Below are positions 234 through 11,352 of a stretch of 64,000 bases of DNA, one piece after another. The number at the start of each line of letters is the position of its first letter. Position 1 is the first letter of the stretch. This DNA comes from an uncultured Gemmatimonadales bacterium (lineage in GTDB: Bacteria > Gemmatimonadota > Gemmatimonadetes > Gemmatimonadales > GWC2-71-9), in the NCBI GenBank assembly GCA_963846545.1, contig CAWJWG010000001.1, forward strand, positions 2,630,515 through 2,694,514, given 5' to 3'. Made by a program: the position numbers and the translations under genes. A model generated the notes under the pieces. It was given only the letters and a program-made list of their open reading frames with translations, searched no databases and was not told the origin of the DNA.

Positions 234-1883
234 CTACTTCGGCACCACCGGCAGTCCCGCCGACTTCCACGCCGTCCACCCGCCCACCAGCGCCTGCGCC
301 TTCTTCCATCCCGCCCGCCTCAGCTCTCGCGCCACACGGGCGCTTGTCGCTTCATCCTGTCAAGTACAGTAGAGGACCAGCGCTCCTCCCTTGTCGAGCT
401 GTTGCTCGCGAGCCAGACGAACCGCGTCCTCGGGGTGCATCCGGATCGCGCCGCGCGCCATCTCCGGATCGTCCCGGTAACTGCGCTCGGTGCGGACGTC
501 GAGCATGGTGACCGGCTCGCCCCGCTCCCACAGCCGGCGCAGCTCGGGGATGGTGATCCGCTCGGGCACCGGCTCGCCGACGTCGATCGTGGCCCCCCGC
601 GCGGCGGGCTCCGCCGGCTCTGCGCCCCCGAACGAGAGCGCCTCCGGCTCCTCGACGCGCGCCGCGGGAGCGGGCGCCGCGTCACTGGTGCCGCTCTTCG
701 GCGCGTTCCGGCGGACGAAGATGGCGATGGCGGCGCCGTGCACGATCACTGACAGCAGCACCACCAGGCAGGTGATCTGGAACAGCCGCACGGCGCCGTC
801 GATTCCGGCGAACACCGGCAGCAGCGCCAGCAGCAGCGCGCTGAGCCCCCGCGGGCCGAGCAGCGCGATGATCCTCCGGTTCGCCGCATCCACGCCGCCG
901 AGGCGGAGCACCGGCAGCAGCACGACGGTCCGGACCGAGAGGGCCACGGCCGCGAAGATCAGCGTGGGCACGTCGGCCACCTCGAAGCCGGTCCAGATGA
1001 TGGACGCCCCGAAGGCGACGAAGGTGAGCAGCAGGAACATCTCGGCCGAGGCCTCCCCGTAGTCGAGGAAGCAGTCGCACAGCTCGACGTCCATCGCGGC
1101 GACGACGAGACCCGCGGCGAACGCGGCCAGGAACCCGCTGCCGCCCACCGCCTCGGCCGCGGCGAAGGCGCTGAACGCCACGCCGAGCGCGTAGAGCGAC
1201 TCGTAGTCGCGCCGGACGCCCATCCGCGACCGCACCCGGTCGAGCAGGGTGATGGCGACGTAGCCGACCACGACGCCGAGCAGCGGGCCGAGGAGGAAGA
1301 GGCCCATCGCCAGGTGACCCACCTCGGCCGCCGTCGCGGCGCCGCCGCTCCGAAGGACCAGCATCGCCAGCACGACCACCGGCAGCAGGATCACGTCGTT
1401 CATCCCGCTCTCCAGCCGGAGCGCGAGCCGCGCGGGCGGCGGGAGAGCGGGGTTCCGCACCAGCGCCCGAAGCAGCACGGGATCGGTCGAGGCGAGCGCG
1501 GCGCCGAGAATCGCGGCCGCCGCGGGGGGGAGGCCCAGCAGGAGACACGCGGCGAGCGCGAGCAGGGCTGCGGGGAGCAGGGTGCCCGGCCCCAGGATGA
1601 GCGCAGCGAGCTTGCGGTGGATCCGCACCTCGCCGATGTCCACCGCGATCGCGTCGGTGAAGAGGACCAGCACCAGGCCCAGGACCGCCAGGACCTCGAT
1701 CGCCTCGGATTCGAGCGTGAGATCCACCACGCCGAGGCCGGCCGGCCCCAGCATGGCGCCGAGGAGGAGGAAGATCCCGACCTGGGGCAAGCCCGACCGC
1801 TCCACGATGCCCGAGAGCAGCGACGCGACGAGGATGACGAGCCCGGTCAGGGCGAGCGCGGCGACGAAGTAGTCGTGGGTCAT
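234..1883 (-). CDS. CPA1 cation:proton antiporter fused to C-terminal rhodanese domain, probable selenocysteine at TGA 360-362
   Basis: Starts MTHDYFVAALAL; motifs ALASTDP and LESGMND; frame continues after VLYCT-TGA as QDEATSARVARELRRAGWKKAQALVGGWTAWKSAGLPVVPK-TAG. Confidence 0.85.
317..362 (-). promoter_or_regulatory. Candidate bacterial SECIS element
   Basis: UGA followed by AGC-GACAA-GCGCC-CGUGU-GGCGC-GAGA-GCU; apical loop 21 nt after UGA with G at loop position 2. Confidence 0.6.
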
Positions 1884-1943: not shown

Positions 1944-3425
1944 ATGTCCATCAGCGAGCCAGCCGCCACCGCCCTGCTGCTCACGACCTGCGGCATCCTG
2001 CTCGCCGCGAGCGTGCTGTTGAGCCGCGTCTCGCAGCGTGTGGGCGTGCCGATCGCGCTGCTCTTCATCGTCGTCGGCATGCTCGCCGGGTCCGAGGGCA
2101 TCGGCGGGATCGCCTTCTCCGACTACCCATTCGCCTTCCGGATCGGCAGCATCGCCCTGGCGCTGATCCTGTTCGACGGCGGCCTCAACACGCCGATGGA
2201 GGCGGTGCGCCGCTACTGGGCGCCGGCCGGCGTGCTCGCCACGGTGGGCGTGGTGCTCACCGCCGGACTCGTCGCCGTCGCGGCCCACGCCATGGGGCTC
2301 GACTGGCCCGAGGCGATGATCCTCGGCGCCGTCGTGTCCTCCACCGACGCCGCCGCGGTCTTCTCCATCCTCCGGGGCAGCGGGCTCCACCTCAAGCGAC
2401 GGGTGGGCGTCACCCTCGAGCTGGAGTCGGGGCTCAACGATCCCGTCGCCGTCATCCTGACCACCACGCTCACGGCCAACCTGCTGGCCCCCGACGCCGT
2501 GGACGGCTGGGCGCTGACCGGCGAGATCCTGGTCCAGCTCGTGGTCGGCGGACTGGTCGGCATCGCGATCGCGTGGGCCGGGCGCGGGCTGCTCGCCCGG
2601 ATCGGCCTGGTGAGCGGAGGACTCTATCCGCCGCTCACGCTCGCCGTCGCCTTCCTCGCCTTCGGTGTGGCAACGCTCCTGCACGGCAGCGGGTTCCTGG
2701 CGGTCTACCTGGCCGGCCTGCTGCTGGGCAACAGTCCCCTGCCCTACAAGGCCGGCCTGCTCCGGGTGCACGACGCGCTCGCGTGGCTCTCGCAGATCGG
2801 GATGTTCCTGATCCTGGGCCTGCTGGTCTTCCCCAGCCGGCTGCCCGAGGTGGCCGGCATCGGGCTCGCGATCGCGCTCCTGCTCGCGGTGGTGCTGCGG
2901 CCGATCACCGTGGCGCTCTGCCTCCTCCCGTTCCGCTATCCGGCGAAGGAGGTCGCCTTCGTCGGCTGGGTCGGCCTCCGGGGCGCCGTGCCCATCGTGC
3001 TCGGCACCTTCCCCGTGCTCGCTCACGCGCCGGGCGCGGACCGGATCTTTCACCTGGTGTTCTTTCTCGTGGTGGTGAGCGCCTTCATCCCGGGCGGCAC
3101 GGTGGCGTGGGTGACCAGGCGCCTCAAGCTGGAGGCGGCGGAGCCGCCCGCGCCGCGGGGGGTGCTGGCGATCGAGTCGCGCCAGCCGCTCCGCGGCGAG
3201 CTCCATTCCTTCTACATCGATGAGGCACTGGTGGTGGCGGGGCTGTCGCTGGCGGACCTGGATTTCCCGGAGAGCGCGGCAGTGGCACTGATCGTGAGAG
3301 GCGACCAGCTCATCGCGCCCAAGGGCGACACCGTCCTCCGGGTGGGCGACCACGTGTATCTGATCGCCCAGGAGGAGGACCGGCCCTTCGTGCAGTTGAT
3401 GTTCGGGCGGCCGGAGGCTGAATAG
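1944..3425 (+). CDS. Potassium/proton antiporter (NhaP2/CvrA family) with TrkA-C domain
   Basis: MSISEP start; GSEGIGGI, SSTDAAAVF, ESGLNDP, GLRGAVPIVL; C-terminal RCK_C-like region. Confidence 0.9.
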   Translation: MSISEPAATALLLTTCGILLAASVLLSRVSQRVGVPIALLFIVVGMLAGSEGIGGIAFSDYPFAFRIGSIALALILFDGGLNTPMEAVRRYWAPAGVLATVGVVLTAGLVAVAAHAMGLDWPEAMILGAVVSSTDAAAVFSILRGSGLHLKRRVGVTLELESGLNDPVAVILTTTLTANLLAPDAVDGWALTGEILVQLVVGGLVGIAIAWAGRGLLARIGLVSGGLYPPLTLAVAFLAFGVATLLHGSGFLAVYLAGLLLGNSPLPYKAGLLRVHDALAWLSQIGMFLILGLLVFPSRLPEVAGIGLAIALLLAVVLRPITVALCLLPFRYPAKEVAFVGWVGLRGAVPIVLGTFPVLAHAPGADRIFHLVFFLVVVSAFIPGGTVAWVTRRLKLEAAEPPAPRGVLAIESRQPLRGELHSFYIDEALVVAGLSLADLDFPESAAVALIVRGDQLIAPKGDTVLRVGDHVYLIAQEEDRPFVQLMFGRPEAE

Positions 3426-3460: not shown

Positions 3461-6400
3461 TCATCCGGGAGACGAGCGTGGCGCGGAGGCCCGCACGCGC
3501 TCCAGCACCTCGGACACCGTCTGGACCAGCACCTCCGCCGAGAGCGGCTTCTGCAGGAACGGCTCCCGATCGATCCCCATCCCCTGCAGCAGCACCGTGT
3601 CCTTGGGATGTCCCGACATCCAGACTACCGGCAGGTCGGGGAAATCCTCGCGGATGCGCTCGGCGAGATCGCGGCCATCCATGACCGGCATCACCAGGTC
3701 ACTCAGCACCACGTCCACCTCGCCCCGGTGCCGCTCCAGCAGGTCGAGCGCCTCGCGCCCGTTGCGGGCGAGGAGCACGTCATAGCCCGCGGCCACCAGG
3801 GCCCGCTTCATGAGCGAGCGGATGATGTCCTCGTCGTCCACCACCAGGACCGTCGCGGGACTCAGCCGTGCGCGGGGCGCCGCGGCGGCCGACGCCGTCT
3901 GTCCCCCGGGCTCGGTGGCCAGCGGCAGCAGCACGGTGAAGGTGGTGGCCGATCCGGCCGTGCTCTCGGCCCAGATGTGCCCCCGGCTCTGCGCCACGAT
4001 CCCGTGCACCGTCGCCAGACCGAGGCCGGTCCCTTCGCCGATGCCCTTGGTGGTGAAGAAGGGATCGAAGATGTGGGGCATGTCCTCGGGCGAGATGCCC
4101 TCGCCCGAATCGGTCACCGTCAGCGCGGCATAGGGTCCCGCCTCGGCCTCGCGCTCGGGCGCTCCGTTCCAGGTGGCGGTGGCGATGACCAGCTTGCCGC
4201 CGTGGGGCATCGCGTCGCGGGCGTTGATCGCGAGGTTCATCAGCACCTGGAGGAACTGGGCGCGGTCCACCTTCACCCAGCGCGCGCCGGGCGCGAGCTG
4301 CACCACGATCTCGATGTTGCTGCCGATGAGGCGTTGCAGCAGCGACTGGCTGTCCGCCACGGCGGCGTCGAGGTTCACCGCCTCGGGCGACAGCACCTGC
4401 TGCCGGCTGAACGCGAGGAGCTGGTGGGTGAGGCTCGCCATGCGCTCCGACGCCTTCCGCACCTCGTGCAGGTCCTGCAGCGCCTGGGCGCTCAGGCCCG
4501 CATCCCGCTCGACGAAGCTGGTGAAGCCGGCGATCCCCTGGAGCTGGTTGTTGAAGTCGTGGGCCAGCCCGCCGGCCAGCCGGCCGACCGCCTCCATCTT
4601 CGCCGCCTGGCGGAGCCGGTCCTCCGCCTGCCGCTGGTCCTCGATGTCGCTGATGGTGCCGACCCATTCCCTGAGGCGGCCTTCCTCGTCCCGCACGGGC
4701 ACGCCGCGTCCGATCACCTGGCGGTACGCGCCGTCGGCCCGACGGAGGCGGAACCGCATCTCGCCCGGCTGGCCGCTCGCGAGCAGGGCGGACCACTCGG
4801 CCGTGACCCGCTCGAGCTCGGACGGGTGGATGGCCCGCATCGCGCCGCCGTCCTTGTACTCGTCCCAGGTGAGGCCGGTGTACGCCTCGTAGCTGGGCGA
4901 GCGGGTGGTGAAGTTGCCCGCGGCGTCGGTGGTCCAGATGACCTGCGACGTCGCCTCGGCGAGCGAGCGGTAGCGCTGCTCGCTCACCCGCAGCGCGGCG
5001 TTGGCCTCGGCGCGGACCCGCGCCAGGTGCAGCGTGGCGCCCACCCGGGCCTGCAGCTCGCGCGCGGCGAACGGCTTGACCACGTAGTCGTCGGCGCCGG
5101 CCTCGAGGCCCTCCACCCGCGCCTCCTCGCCCGCGCGGGCGGAGAGGAGGATCACCGGGAGGCGCGCGGTACGCGGATCGGTGCGGAGCGCGCGGAGCAG
5201 GCCGAAGCCGTCGAGGACCGGCATCATCACGTCGCTCAACACCAGGTCGGCCCCGCCCTCGTAGGCGATCCGGAGCGCCTCCTCGCCGTTGGCCACCGCG
5301 CGCACATCGTAGCCGTCGTGCAGCAGCCGGCGGACGTAGTCGCGCATGTCGGCGTTGTCGTCGGCCACCACCACGCGGGGCTTCGCCGCCGAGGCCGCGG
5401 GCGTTCCGCCGCCCTCGACCGGCATGGAGGATGCCGGCACCGGCGCGCCGGGGAGCCAGCGGAGCGCCTCCTCGACGTAGGCGTCCGCCTGGGCGGTCGC
5501 GGCCTCGAGCCGGGGCGTGGCGCCGATCCGCTGGGGATCGAGGTGCCCGGTGCCGAGCGGGAGGCGGACGGTGAAGGTGCTGCCGCGCTTCGGCTCGCTT
5601 TCCACGGATACGGTCCCGCCGTGCAGCCGCACCAGCTCCTGCACCAGCGCCAGCCCGATGCCGGTGCCCTCGTGGGTGCGCCCGCGCGCGCCTTCCACCC
5701 GGTGGAAGCGCTCGAAGAGCCGCGGCAGCTCGGCCGCGGGGATGCCGGTGCCGGTGTCGGTCACCGTGACCACGGCCTCGCGCGCGGCGGCGGAGACGGT
5801 CACCCGGATCTCCCCGGCCATGGTGAACTTGAACGCGTTGGAGAGGAGGTTGAGGACCACCTTCTCCCACATGTCGCGGTCCACGTAGACCGGCTCGGGG
5901 AGCGGCGGCGCCTCGACCACGAGCCGGAGTCCCGCGCGGTCGAGCGCCGAGCGGAAGGTCGCCGCCAGCTCGGCCGTGACCGCGGCGAGGTCGGTGGGCT
6001 CGTAGCGCGCCTGCATCCGCCCCGCCTCGATCCGGGAGAAGTCGAGCAGCGTGTTCACCAGCTTGAGCAGCCGGACGCCGTTCCGGTGGGCGGTCTGCAC
6101 CAGGGCGCGCTCGGTCGGCGCGGCGGCGGCGTCCCACTGCGCCAGCACCTCCTCCAGCGGGCCGAGCATGAGGGTGAGCGGGGTGCGGAACTCGTGGCGA
6201 GACGTTGGAGAAGAAGGTGGTCTTGACCCGGTCCAGCTCGGCGAGCGCCTCGACCCGGCGCCGCTCGTCCTCGTAGGCCTGCGCGTTCACCACCGCGCCC
6301 GCGATCTGGGAGACGACCAGCGAGAGAAATCCCTGGTAGCGGTCGTCGTAGAGCCGGTAGGGATTGAGCCCCGCCACGAAGACGCCGGCCTCGACGCCCT

Positions 6401-8116: not shown

Positions 8117-8326
8117 GGCCGGGCTCCGGAAGCGAGGTGGTGGTGCAGGGAGCATAGCCCGTAGAGGGGGAGGCCAACAAGACCAACTGAACGGCCAGGG
8201 TCAAGACAAGGGCAGCTCGGCACTTGAGATCGGCTTGACGGTCGAGGGCGAGATCTCTGTTCGAACGCGACGGTGGCCGCCATGGGTGTGTTCGGGGTAG
8301 GCCGCACTCCAACCGAAGAGGGGTAT

Positions 8327-9550
8327 ATGCTGGCACATGTCTGGTGCAGCGGTCGGCCACGCCGGCCCGCAGGGCGGCTCGGCTCCATGCTGGCCCTGGG
8401 CCTCGGGCTCTTCGCGGCGGGCTGTGGCGAAGATGCCGAGTCGCCCACCGGTCCCGGGCTCGACCCGGCCCCCGCCACCGCGGCGGCGAGCGCGCTTGCC
8501 TTTCAGCAGGTCACCGTGGGCTACGGCTTCAGCTGTGGGGTCGCCGCCGACGACCGGGCCTACTGCTGGGGCGAGAACCAGAACGGCTCGCTGGGTGACG
8601 GCACCGGGATCAACCGCACCAGGCCGACCCTCGTGGCGGGCGGGCTGCGATTCCGCAACCTGAGCGCGGGGACCCTGCACATGTGCGGGGTGACCACCGA
8701 CTTCAAGGTGTACTGCTGGGGCTATGGCGCAGAGGGACAGCTGGGAAACGGCACCACCAATCCGGCGCGCCGGAGCCCGGCGCTGGTGGCCGGAGGCCAG
8801 GCCTTCCGCCAGGTGAAGGCGGGGGACGACCACACCTGCGCGATCACCCGCGCGAACGCGGCCTACTGCTGGGGCGCCAACACCGCCGGAGGGCTGGGGG
8901 ACGGCACGACCACCCGGCGGCTCACGCCGGTGAAGGTCAAGGGCGGGCACCAGTGGAGCCAGCTCACCGGAAGCAACGCCTATACCTGCGGCGTGACCCA
9001 GGACGATCTGGCGTACTGCTGGGGCCTCAACACGCTCCCCGACGGCACGGTCATCACTCGGCTCACGCCGACCGCCATCGCCGGCGGGTTGCGGTTCCAG
9101 ATCATCGAATCGGGTGCCGGCCACGTCTGCGCCATCACCACCGCCGACCGGCTCTACTGCTGGGGCTACAACACGGACGGAGAGATCGGGACCGGCGCCA
9201 CCACCAATTACTACCACACGCCAGTCGCGGTCGCCGGGAACCGGCGGTACGCCCAGCTGGGCGCCGGGTATACCCACAGCTGCGCCGTGACGCTGGCCTC
9301 CAAGACCTTCTGCTGGGGATTCAACGGCTCGGGCCAGCTGGGCGACGGGACCGGGACCACGCGAACGGTGCCCACCGCCGTGACCGGCGGCGTGACGTTC
9401 ACCAAGGTGAGTGCCGGCGTCATGCACAGCTGCGGTGTCACCGCGGCGGGCAAGGCGTACTGCTGGGGAAACAATTGGGGTGGCGAGCTGGGGAACGGGA
9501 CGATCAGCTCGGAAGTCCGGAGCCCGGCCGCCGTTGCCCCGCCACTGTGA
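8327..9550 (+). CDS. RCC1/BLIP-II repeat beta-propeller lipoprotein
   Basis: Seven repeats of HxCx(8-9)CWGxNxxGxLG; lipobox AAGC; start could also be 8387. Confidence 0.9.
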   Translation: MLAHVWCSGRPRRPAGRLGSMLALGLGLFAAGCGEDAESPTGPGLDPAPATAAASALAFQQVTVGYGFSCGVAADDRAYCWGENQNGSLGDGTGINRTRPTLVAGGLRFRNLSAGTLHMCGVTTDFKVYCWGYGAEGQLGNGTTNPARRSPALVAGGQAFRQVKAGDDHTCAITRANAAYCWGANTAGGLGDGTTTRRLTPVKVKGGHQWSQLTGSNAYTCGVTQDDLAYCWGLNTLPDGTVITRLTPTAIAGGLRFQIIESGAGHVCAITTADRLYCWGYNTDGEIGTGATTNYYHTPVAVAGNRRYAQLGAGYTHSCAVTLASKTFCWGFNGSGQLGDGTGTTRTVPTAVTGGVTFTKVSAGVMHSCGVTAAGKAYCWGNNWGGELGNGTISSEVRSPAAVAPPL

Positions 9551-10302
9551 CGCACCAGTCAGTGAGGGCCGTGCTCTCGCCCACCAATTGTCACGGCGGG
9601 CGAGAGACAGGGTCCAGGCCTTCGGTCACCACCTGCAGGTCCGCACTGTCCGGCATCCCACGGCGCGCGGCAGGAGTTGAGGACAGGCTGACTGTCCGCG
9701 AACCGGCGCACTCATAGGTACGACAGCCTCCATGCCCCGCTCCGAGCGTTCAGGTCCGCGTACCGCCGGCACAACGGGTACAGCGCCGCGACCAGCCCGA
9801 GTCACACCAGGTAGATCACCGGCAGACCGACCCCGTACCCCTCCGGGAGCCCTTTGGACGCACCGATCACCGAGATCCCCGGGCGACGAGACCGAGGGTC
9901 AGCCGGAGTCACCGAGCGCGTGGCGAAGAGCGCCGCGTCGGTTCGGGCCCAGCCTTACGTGAACGTGGGCTCACTTGCACCGAACCGGAAGGCATTTCCG
10001 GGTAAAGTACCGTGCTCATTGGCGTTCTCCCCTGACCGTAGGGCTCTGCCGACGCGGCGATACCCCTTCGGCGCGCCCTTCCGGCACCGGAGGAGATCGA
10101 TTTCTGCACGGCAACCTTTGCCGTTTGGAACGGTTGAGTCCCGATCTGCCAACCCCTGCGGCGCGACCGTCAAAAAGTTCGACATATCGAGGTTCGGAAC
10201 GCTTGACCCGGACGGGCACGGGACCTTAGTGTGGCAGGCTTCTTCCAGAGATTCGACCGTGTCCCGGAAGCGGAAAGTTTTCCTCTATCCCGCGTGGCCC
10301 CG

Positions 10303-11352
10303 ATGGTCAACAAGTCGGCAACGAACGTCGGCACTCCCTGGCTGGGTTGGGTCGATACGTCGGCCCTCCTGCGGGAGGCGCGCTCGTACGAGCTGGCCGG
10401 GTCGCTGCGCCACGCGGACGCCGCCTACAACGCCCTCATCGTCGCCGCCACCCGGCAGCAGGACCACTCGGCGCTGGCGTCGGCGTTCCGGCACCGCGCG
10501 GTGCTGGCGCACCACGCCGGCGACACGGTGCGCGCGCGGAGCGCGCTGCAGCAGAGCTATGCGATCGCCGCCATGATCGGCGACCGCCGGCTCACGGCGG
10601 AGACGCTCAACACGCTGGGCGGGATCGAGCTGGAGACGCGGAACCTGGTGGCGGCCGAGGTGGCGCTGCTGGAGGCGGAGGCGCTGGCGAGCGAGGATCC
10701 CCTGATCCTGGCGCGGGTGGAGCAGAACCTGGGCATCGTGGCCAACATCCGGGGCCACCACGACACGGCCGAGACCCACTACCGGAAGTCGCTGGCGGCG
10801 TACGAGACGCTGACCGACCCGCACGGCAGCGCGATCGCCCACCACAACCTCGGCATGCTCGCGGCGGACAAGAGCGAGCACCAGACCGCGGTGGGGCACT
10901 TCGATGCCTGCGAGACGCTGGCGGAGCAGAGCCGGGACGCCCACCTGGTGGCGCTGTGCCTGCTGAACCGGGCGGAGGTTCTGCTGGCGCTGGGACGGGC
11001 TGCGGAAGCCCGGCGGGACGTGCGGTCGGCGGAGCTGGGGTTCGAGGCGCTGGGCGCGCATTTCAACGCGGCCGACGTGCGCCGGGTGCTGGGCCTGTGT
11101 GACCTTGCGGACGGGCTCTACGGCCAGGCGGAGACCCGGCTGCTGCAGTCGCGGGAGCTGGCGAAGATGACGGGGGCGCGGCTGACCGAGGCGGAGGCGG
11201 CGCGGGACCTGGGGCGGCTGTATGCACACGAGGGGCGGCTGGGCGAGGCGCAGGAGGCGCTACGGGAGGCGGCGCAGACGTTCGCGGTGCTGGGAGCGGC
11301 GGGGGATGCGGCGGCGGTGGAGCGGGAGATGGAGGGGGTCGTGGCGCAGTAG
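10303..11352 (+). CDS. Stand-alone tetratricopeptide repeat protein
   Basis: TPR patterns TLNTLGGI, VEQNLGIV, AHHNLGML, CLLNRAEV, AARDLGRL; no signal peptide. Confidence 0.85.
   Translation: MVNKSATNVGTPWLGWVDTSALLREARSYELAGSLRHADAAYNALIVAATRQQDHSALASAFRHRAVLAHHAGDTVRARSALQQSYAIAAMIGDRRLTAETLNTLGGIELETRNLVAAEVALLEAEALASEDPLILARVEQNLGIVANIRGHHDTAETHYRKSLAAYETLTDPHGSAIAHHNLGMLAADKSEHQTAVGHFDACETLAEQSRDAHLVALCLLNRAEVLLALGRAAEARRDVRSAELGFEALGAHFNAADVRRVLGLCDLADGLYGQAETRLLQSRELAKMTGARLTEAEAARDLGRLYAHEGRLGEAQEALREAAQTFAVLGAAGDAAAVEREMEGVVAQ

Follow-up and report, generated by a model that had tools for sequence, protein, structure and literature searches.

A cation/proton antiporter gene on a 64,000-nucleotide stretch of DNA from an uncultured Gemmatimonadales bacterium (contig CAWJWG010000001.1, positions 2,630,515 to 2,694,514; hereafter the window, from whose first letter all positions are counted) very probably encodes a selenoprotein with a rhodanese tail. 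The host genome measures 3.82 Mb, with 69% G+C. The gene lies on the minus strand and starts with the ATG at 1883-1881. Translated with table 11, its open reading frame (ORF) ends in ...ALVLYCT and is closed by the TGA at 362-360. Past this TGA, 41 more sense codons (QDEATSARVARELRRAGWKKAQALVGGWTAWKSAGLPVVPK) follow in frame, up to a TAG at 236-234. We predict from sequence comparison, and with high confidence as regards the selenoprotein identity, that this is one gene with a 549-residue product. In it, an antiporter of about 13 membrane segments would be joined through a flexible linker of ~55 residues to a cytoplasmic rhodanese domain that carries selenocysteine (Sec) at residue 508. The parts of the gene, including its predicted selenocysteine insertion sequence (SECIS), are listed here with the evidence for each.

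234..1883, minus strand: coding sequence of the predicted antiporter-rhodanese selenoprotein, 549 codons including Sec508, followed by TAG 236-234 (translation with TGA as U, Pfam, orthologs).
360..362, minus strand: UGA codon 508, very probably read as selenocysteine (conserved column, Cys in homologs, contigs of three runs).
366..368, minus strand: Cys506 codon TGT, two residues before Sec, a candidate resolving cysteine (invariant in the protein alignments).
711..1829, minus strand: CPA1 Na_H_Exchanger membrane domain, residues 19-391 (PF00999 in the read-through product, 134.5 bits against a cut-off of 26.2, profile positions 2-374 of 375; motifs; hydrophobic segments).
1068..1082, minus strand: L-C269-D-C271-F motif, invariant in the alignments; the acidic loop that contains it joins hydrophobic segments 9 and 10 (alignments and topology count).
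546..710, minus strand: Ala/Pro/Glu-rich variable linker, residues 392-446 (gap-rich and without conserved columns in the alignment with Cys-form fusions).
261..545, minus strand: rhodanese domain, residues 447-541, with the active-site loop U508-Q-D-E-A-T-S (PF00581, NF041203, structure model, Foldseek, alignment with PDB 6mxv and 1tq1).
317..356, minus strand: predicted SECIS element, with upper stem 343-339/333-329, apical loop 338-334, an internal loop and lower stem 356-349/324-317.

The TGA at residue 508 falls in the middle of the Pfam Rhodanese match. PF00581 covers residues 447-541 with 34.4 bits against a cut-off of 22.2, and it does so only when the UGA is read through. An earlier note, made from the letters of this DNA, had stated that the ORF stops mid-domain at VLYCT-TGA and that 41 further codons complete the rhodanese fold. 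Both statements hold: the frame runs on to the TAG, and the Pfam match spans the TGA. Sequencing error at position 360 was also addressed, as contigs from three public runs of three studies cover 360-362 and agree on TGA, with no other letter listed. These are record 1 of run X1, which covers 150-570 with 0 differences, record 7 of X2 (206-375) and record 13 of X7 (224-485); run X1 may be the source sample of the genome assembly.

We determined how well the TGA is conserved by a six-frame search of 60 related genomes, 36 of them congeneric, from which 30 loci were kept for extraction. A match spanning the Sec column was present in 33 of the 36 congeners, each with exactly one TGA (32 of 35 without the unpublished genome G003). 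Of the three remaining congeners, one has a contig that ends at residue 377, and G019 and G026 gave paralog-level matches only. The TGA occupies the identical column in 28 of the 30 kept loci, within the motif VLYC[AT]U[KQA][DE]EATS, and the other two loci end earlier. The kept orthologs are 60-77% identical to the window protein. One congeneric metagenome-assembled genome of 63% completeness (G014) contained three ortholog copies, on contigs C53, C52 and C14, each with the TGA; these reflect either a mixture of strains or a true duplication.

The same arrangement was found beyond the genus. In a second search, which covered 400 more genomes from across the phylum Gemmatimonadota, the fused gene turned up in 34 genomes (33 if the unpublished G106 is left out), drawn from two families of the order. 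Each copy carries a single TGA, which stands at the column in the 29 extracted loci. Three more matches in this search bear a TGA, and for these fusion could not be shown. When the window protein and six of its orthologs were aligned and the resulting pattern was scanned against one genome for each GTDB species, 251 relatives were found. The best 80 of these, ranked by likeness to the Sec-form query, include 78 with TGA at the column and two on contigs that end early; a sense codon occurs there in none of them. The motif across phyla is [YF]C[AT]U.

By the names in their records, the 78 TGA loci come from Gemmatimonadota, Pyrinomonadaceae and Thermoanaerobaculaceae (both Acidobacteriota), Chloroflexia/Chloroflexaceae, Syntrophobacteraceae, a 'delta proteobacterium', Binatia, Eisenbacteria and Gemmataceae. 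The lineages of the family, also by record name, are Gemmatimonadota, Acidobacteriota, Chloroflexota, Desulfobacterota-type, Binatia, Eisenbacteria and Planctomycetota. Considering that several loci lie on contigs of 0.36-8.7 Mb, mis-binning cannot explain this phyletic spread. One 2.6-kb 'Chloroflexota' contig looks Gemmatimonadales-like and may be mis-binned.

Homologs outside the TGA-bearing set showed the Cys/TGA pairing that the earlier note had named as a check: Cys stands at the Sec column in all full-length homologs aligned, and TGA in the orthologs. With the tail as query, 1,877 relatives were found among 1.84 billion representative proteins. We aligned 34 of the 150 that were listed, namely 26 matches that span the whole query and eight that end at query residue 65-66 with their own C-terminus. 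All 26 full-length rhodanese rows have C-x-C at the column, typically as YC[TSA]CP[ND]E.TS. The eight short rows end in ...YC[TA], as expected of truncated Sec forms.

One of the Cys forms, P0085, is itself an antiporter fusion with both PF00999 and PF00581. Among its longer relatives, of which 120 were listed, 27 are full-length C-x-C antiporter-rhodanese proteins, 92 end in ...C[AT] one residue before the column and one is of another kind. Fourteen of 14 full-length Cys fusions are 47-56% identical to the window protein over its whole length, with invariant Cys at the positions of C506 and C508. Their NCBI names include Bryobacteraceae, Gammaproteobacteria and Capsulimonas, and some bear the JGI label 'NhaP-type Na+/H+ or K+/H+ antiporter/rhodanese-related sulfurtransferase'. 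All Cys forms came from protein collections, and no Cys-form antiporter fusion was found in the 401 Gemmatimonadota genomes sampled. Five TGA-less rhodanese matches from the phylum (L117-L121) were considered as Cys forms and rejected; they are MoeB/MoeZ-type adenylyltransferase-rhodanese fusions with CRSG-type loops.

Public gene calls are systematically cut short at this position. Of 65 matches, 64 cover 66% or less of the queried region, and five of seven retrieved calls end in ...YCT or ...FCT. The calls P0031 and P0065 pass the Sec column in shifted frames, with tails like ...WSSTV.E.TKRQAP.WRES, probably owing to assembly indels. The annotation of many soil and sediment genomes would thus lack both the rhodanese domain and the selenoprotein, and selenoproteome counts would be too low for these phyla.

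A hairpin is located just 3' of the UGA. It consists of GCGCC at 343-339, the loop CGUGU at 338-334 and GGCGC at 333-329, exactly as the earlier note had described it, and its apical loop lies 21 nt from the A of the UGA. The G+C-rich upper stem of 5 bp starts 16 nt after the UGA, and the loop reads CGGGU in most orthologs. Criteria of the bSECISearch type place a G-containing apical loop roughly 16-37 nt 3' of the UGA. The loop found here contains G, lies within that range and is conserved, and the stem shows compensatory changes. What had to be revised is the extent of the element. The five-pair hairpin is only its upper part; a lower stem (356-349/324-317), paired in 84% of cells and in most congeners, brings the SECIS to ~40 nt, and this lower stem is weak in the window copy.

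In nucleotide alignments of 27, 51 and 79 sequences, the pairs of the upper stem are formed in 135 of 135, 255 of 255 and 389 of 390 cells, respectively. Pair types in the largest alignment were counted over 78 distinct sequences. Pair 37-47 is G-C in 67, A-U in 10 and G-U in one of them, while pair 38-46 is C-G in 76, U-A in one and U-G in one. Pair 33-51 lies beneath a mismatch of one base; the majority of sequences have mismatched A·A there, 15 have C-G and 11 have G-C. Cells with both sides changed numbered 26, compared to 6.5 in shuffles, and none of 500 shuffles reached 26. Overall pairing was 72%, compared to 21-41% when the partners were slid by 1-3 columns. Kinship inflates such compensatory counts, and we placed the weight on the distinct pair types. 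RNAalifold recovered the same upper stem independently. The search of positions 150-600 of the window against Rfam found no family anywhere near its gathering score.

The hairpin also leaves a trace in codon usage. Across 28 orthologs, residues 505-519 have the lowest synonymous codon entropy of the gene, with a mean of 0.20 bits compared to 0.96 for the whole gene. Within these residues, ACA for Thr and CGA for Arg, rare codons that are unfavoured at high G+C, are invariant in 28 of 28 orthologs. The G+C content at third codon positions (GC3) is 0.67 in the SECIS codons and 0.80 upstream in the antiporter gene. The A-U and U-A variants of the stem each need two amino-acid replacements, turning SARVA into STRVV or SVRVT, so that in two cases a base change that preserves pairing came at the cost of two residues. 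The core of the SECIS hardly varies from phylum to phylum, and it overlaps a stretch of protein that is itself conserved, which makes it a clean example of dual coding constraint. Two further observations concern the neighbouring Cys506 codon. Although the genome is rich in G+C, TGT is the codon used in 27 of 28 congeners, through recoding context or chance, and RNAalifold pairs CUGU at this codon with bases ~50 nt downstream.

Selection on the sequence after the UGA is also evident at the protein level. In the codon alignment of the 28 orthologs, invariant residues after residue ~522 use three to four synonymous codons each (A524, G525, A529, L532, G534, G535, G543 and others). Synonymous codons change while the residues are kept, which points to protein-level selection on the tail. 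An AlphaFold2 model of residues 442-549, built from a 35-row alignment, has a mean predicted local distance difference test score (pLDDT) of 97.8. In this model the residues after the UGA form a helix (68-82 in domain numbering), a strand (88-91), a second helix (94-100) and a second strand (105-107). Judging from the model, a product ending at residue 507 could not form the rhodanese domain, as a core helix and strand would be missing.

The genome of the window encodes the machinery for Sec insertion, and all four genes that the earlier note had listed as a test (selA, selB, selC and selD) were found. The tRNA-Sec scores 69 bits against a cut-off of 47 and was also called by ARAGORN. The matches for selA (530 bits), selB (312 bits) and selD (379 bits) are all above their curated cut-offs. 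Outside the genus, selA is present in five of five carriers from five other genera; four are above the cut-off, and the fifth is split into two pieces. Following the established SelB mechanism, the hairpin just 3' of the UGA would be bound by SelB·GTP·Sec-tRNA(Sec), with Sec delivered when the ribosome arrives. If no Sec were inserted, translation would end after residue 507.

A targeted family search of the same genome recovered a formate-dehydrogenase-alpha-like gene (G000:C1:2319860-2320423, minus strand) with an in-frame TGA in ...NVDSCNRTUHAPSVVGL.... A 10-bp hairpin follows. Its loop, GUCUGG, begins 19 nt downstream of the UGA, in a geometry comparable to that of the antiporter SECIS. 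This gene is a probable second selenoprotein, as judged from its sequence; its TIGR01553 score is far below the cut-off. A GC3-based genome scan for TGA-interrupted genes was dropped, as its thresholds missed the antiporter gene itself. Among its tRNA calls in this genome, ARAGORN reported two of unusual length, a 'tRNA-Ala(cgc)' of 95 nt (C1:1181691-1181785) and a 'tRNA-Gly(gcc)' of 94 nt (C1:1711787-1711880), which either contain introns or are false calls.

The main alternative for the codon itself is that the TGA is a real stop, in a truncated or decaying gene or through an assembly error, or that read-through occurs but involves no selenium, for instance through near-cognate insertion of Cys or Trp. 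The public gene calls, which all stop at the TGA, would suit this explanation. Against it, the TGA and the 41-codon tail are kept, in a pattern of purifying selection, in several phyla, in orthologs down to ~50% identity; the hairpin has undergone compensatory changes that each cost two residues; the Sec machinery is present; and independent contigs agree on the TGA. Moreover, TGA ends ordinary genes in these genomes, including several of the orthologs themselves ~45 codons after the Sec codon, which indicates that it has not been reassigned. We therefore regard a real stop or selenium-free read-through as very improbable.

Sec at UGA508 is, in our estimation, very likely. The earlier note had read a UGA at a Cys position next to a hairpin as Sec recoding, and the orthologs bear this out in keeping both the TGA and the stem, the latter with compensatory changes. 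Several points nevertheless weigh against this reading. Incorporation of Sec is predicted, and the case for it rests on comparison with other genomes. The ortholog sample consists largely of close kin, so the cell counts overstate the number of independent events, and the ranking of the best 80 loci means that they give no ratio of Sec to Cys forms. Folded as a single sequence, positions 290-365 have a z-score of 0.53, and 136 of 200 shuffles fold equally well or better. This is expected at 69% G+C, and the significance of the hairpin thus comes only from the comparison of orthologs. The window's own lower stem is only partly paired, with three consecutive pairs and scattered ones. Finally, the best rhodanese-type NCBIfam match for the tail, NF041203 (rhodanese_LYCAU, 'rhodanese-related (seleno)protein'), scores 84.7 bits with the whole protein and 88.8 with the domain alone, below its curated cut-off of 115.

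We compared the active site of the tail with those of known rhodaneses. In ungapped alignments, U508 and not C506 falls on the single active-site Cys of PDB 6mxv (in both of its domains) and 1tq1. C506 precedes U508 by two residues, where the central strand ends (in the model, strand 60-64, C65, T66, U67 and a helix from 68), and it is invariant in the alignments of rhodanese tails, Cys fusions and other family proteins. The C-T-U motif proposed in the earlier note was thus recovered, with the refinement that the canonical catalytic position belongs to Sec508 rather than Cys506. As aligned, the predicted Sec is the replacement of the rhodanese catalytic Cys. The loop that follows, U-[KQP..]-[DN]-E-A-T-S, is acidic and without Arg or Lys; the loops of 6mxv and 1tq1 are of the C-x-x-G-x-R type.

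Rhodanese-like selenoproteins with a CxU motif were already known, as the earlier note had stated. They are catalogued as NF041203 and, in the accessible part of the review PMC13188914, as 'form 3' of the rhodaneses; the accessible part of the 2022 review PMC9312934 lists the same CxU form. In these parts of both reviews the function of the family is a bioinformatic prediction only. The window tail resembles NF041203 in its C-x-U motif (LYCTU in the window, LYCAU or LYCTU in congeners, with LYCAU in the majority of orthologs) and in the alternation of Sec and Cys. It differs in that NF041203 models a stand-alone protein of 126 residues, whereas the module in the window is the C-terminal domain of a 549-residue antiporter.

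Stand-alone relatives occur in the same bacterial family. Two rhodanese genes of 123-124 residues, L110 (G252:C40) and L111 (G214:C54), contain ...[FL]YCAU[KQ]DEATSARAAR... and have a SECIS core near-identical to that of the antiporter gene, with the loop CGGGC instead of CGGGU. Both end at a genuine TGA stop, with a Ser/Thr-kinase-like ORF downstream. Two DedA/VTT membrane proteins of 310 and 327 residues, L113 (G433:C29) and L114 (G102:C11), are fused to the same module, with ...VVLYC[ST]UPNE.TSAR... and a similar hairpin core. A DedA-type Cys form exists as well (P0090, VTT_dom and Rhodanese). The fusions to both antiporters and DedA/VTT proteins suggest that the CxU rhodanese is a module used on more than one kind of membrane protein.

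Another relative, L112 (G362:C27), has 152 residues, a lipoprotein-like leader (...GGAIACGG...), a rhodanese domain and a TGA in ...IVLYCTUPADESS...; if it is exported, the module family would also have a periplasmic member. The stand-alone, DedA-fused and lipoprotein-leader relatives score 60-84 bits with NF041203, all under 115. A small rhodanese-like ORF, L115 (G034:C9:366900-368100), has its TGA elsewhere in the loop (...VVYCASPTUHAAENAAREL...) and is either another selenoprotein form or a chance occurrence.

Foldseek matched the modelled domain to many rhodaneses with a probability of 1.00. Template modeling (TM) scores were 0.79-0.80 to Alr3790, 0.74 to GlpE, 0.69 to TSTD1 and 0.62-0.63 to YgaP. 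YgaP of E. coli is likewise a single rhodanese domain on membrane helices, with an anchor that we take to be a helix pair and not a transporter. Its catalytic Cys is S-nitrosylated or S-sulfhydrated according to the titles of PDB entries 5hbl and 5hbo; it has Cys rather than Sec, and its active-site loop differs from that of the window protein. Alr3790 of Anabaena (PDB 3hix, 3ilm, 2kl3 and 3k9r), a structural-genomics entry, is the closest solved structure both by sequence (E-value 2.4e-8) and by fold, and its loop has the same ...DE.TS... signature. Gly and Ala stand at the positions of Cys506 and Sec508 of the window protein, so that Alr3790 lacks the redox pair.

The membrane domain has the features of a CPA1 antiporter. 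It contains TDP at residues 133-135, ND at 162-163 and GPRG at 343-346, and the TDP and ND motifs are invariant in the alignments of both Cys fusions and family members. We take the ND motif to mark electroneutral CPA1 antiporters. A hydropathy count gives about 13 hydrophobic segments, an external N-terminus and an internal C-terminus, a topology that presumably matches the NhaP structures. By this count the LCDCF loop and the rhodanese tail are both cytoplasmic. The LCDCF motif was seen in 63 of 65 and in 119 of 120 members of the family. With the SECIS set aside, the synonymous entropy of the gene reaches its minimum (0.52 bits) at residues 262-275 (1068-1106, minus strand), which contain the LCDCF loop; this reflects either biased two-fold codons or a second constraint at the nucleotide level.

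A second antiporter gene lies head to head with the selenoprotein gene.

1944..3425, plus strand: divergent CPA1 paralog with a TrkA_C tail, a context feature outside the selenoprotein gene (PF00999, 172.9 bits; PF02080, 41.1 bits).

Only 60 nt (1884-1943) separate the two genes, so their divergent promoters must overlap. This pairing recurs in many congeners (for example at G032:C61, G025:C44 and G029:C380). The paralog represents the NhaP2-type CPA1 K+(Na+)/H+ antiporters with a TrkA_C (RCK_C) domain, which share the PF00999 fold and the layout of a transporter followed by a cytoplasmic C-terminal domain. Its membrane domain is 29-34% identical to that of the selenoprotein; it differs in ending in TrkA_C rather than a Sec-rhodanese and in lacking LCDCF.

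As for function, for which the earlier note had proposed a Sec-based redox or sulfur switch, we suggest that Cys506-x-Sec508 may form a reversible selenenylsulfide, or accept sulfane sulfur, and in this way report the redox or reactive-sulfur state and gate the antiporter, a reading to which we give somewhat less than an even chance. The rhodanese tail would stand in for the TrkA_C regulatory tail of the neighbouring paralog, and the switch could act through the cytoplasmic, family-specific LCDCF loop as a candidate contact. In favour of such a regulatory role, the conserved divergent paralog has its TrkA_C tail at the same position, LCDCF is specific to the family, and the loop and the tail are on the same, cytoplasmic side. 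The K+/H+ antiporters KefC and KefB (CPA2) are gated by a cytoplasmic C-terminal domain that reads glutathione versus glutathione adducts. They provide a functional precedent in logic, an antiporter set by a thiol-reading cytoplasmic tail. They differ in their CPA subfamily, in their KTN/RCK sensor and non-covalent ligand, and in having neither rhodanese nor Sec, and we claim no homology between the tails. A more far-reaching version, which we put forward tentatively and consider rather doubtful, is that Sec508, Cys506 and the two cysteines of LCDCF constitute a four-chalcogen switch or relay. It would couple cation/proton exchange, and with it cytoplasmic pH and K+/Na+, to redox, reactive-sulfur or selenium status in a widespread family of selenium-dependent transporters. 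Three points count against the regulatory reading: the topology comes from a simple hydropathy count; there are no sulfur, selenium or redox genes near the gene; and the acidic loop lacks the basic residues usual in thiosulfate sulfurtransferases, although this argues only against one classical activity.

The tail could instead be a membrane-tethered sulfur or selenium transferase, in which a persulfide-type intermediate on Sec508 is passed to Cys506, to LCDCF or to both, coupled to ion or substrate movement. This is an unlikely alternative in our view, but it has a basis in that Sec occupies the exact catalytic position of active rhodaneses within a complete single-domain fold close to GlpE, TSTD1 and YgaP. 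The four invariant Cys/Sec residues would suit a relay, and the occurrence of the CxU module on DedA/VTT proteins and as a stand-alone protein would fit a chemistry of its own. It is harder to reconcile with a U-x-D/N-E-A-T-S loop that offers no basic residue to anionic sulfur donors, with the absence of sulfur-metabolism genes nearby and with a membrane domain that keeps TDP and ND, motifs that we take to be those of a CPA1 exchanger. A soft-metal or metalloid site formed by the C-x-U pair, alone or with LCDCF, in a metal-sensing or metal-gated antiporter, is more improbable still. Two conserved C-x-C/U motifs with acidic flanks would be compatible with it, and the accessible part of PMC13188914 links the majority of predicted transporter-type selenoproteins to resistance against heavy metals or metalloids and notes that Sec may be a metal ligand. 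On the other side, no metal-resistance genes are nearby and the rhodanese fold is not a usual metal-binding module. Of these possibilities, gating by the Cys506/Sec508 pair is the one we prefer.

With the CxU selenoprotein already known at the level of the domain, what appears to be new is that a selenoprotein of this kind is fused to an antiporter, how widely this fusion is spread among phyla, and that public gene calls systematically truncate it. The earlier note had remarked that such a fusion seemed uncharacterised. In agreement with this, we found neither a rhodanese-antiporter selenoprotein fusion nor a pairing of rhodanese with NhaP in the literature searched, which comprised titles and the starts of abstracts, with supplements outside the search. 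Among the papers listed on selenocysteine in gemmatimonads, none concerned such a fusion by title or start of abstract. The words 'antiporter', 'exchanger' and 'Gemmatimon' do not occur in the accessible part of PMC13188914, nor do 'antiporter' or 'Gemmatimon' in that of PMC9312934. The transporter-type selenoproteins of the former, a review of 2026, are related to metals or metalloids in the part accessible.

A Sec-bearing cation/proton antiporter would tie the use of selenium to the homeostasis of ions and pH, and many soil and sediment bacteria would share this hidden selenoprotein. Should the four-chalcogen switch be real, it would be the first selenoprotein of the CPA superfamily and a new mode of antiporter gating. 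The neighbouring paralogs, with a TrkA_C or a Sec-rhodanese tail, and the natural Cys forms provide a ready contrast for what Sec contributes to the active site and how a rhodanese might control a transporter.

The wider neighbourhood of the gene favours none of the functional readings; it encodes a lipoprotein without a Pfam match, subunits a and b of the F0 ATP synthase, and a hybrid histidine kinase. The kinase is encoded by the ORF at 3461-6169 (minus strand) and has two HATPase_c domains, two receiver domains and a PAS domain. Further along the window, the ORF at 8273-9550 (plus strand) encodes an RCC1-repeat protein and that at 10231-11352 (plus strand) a TPR protein.

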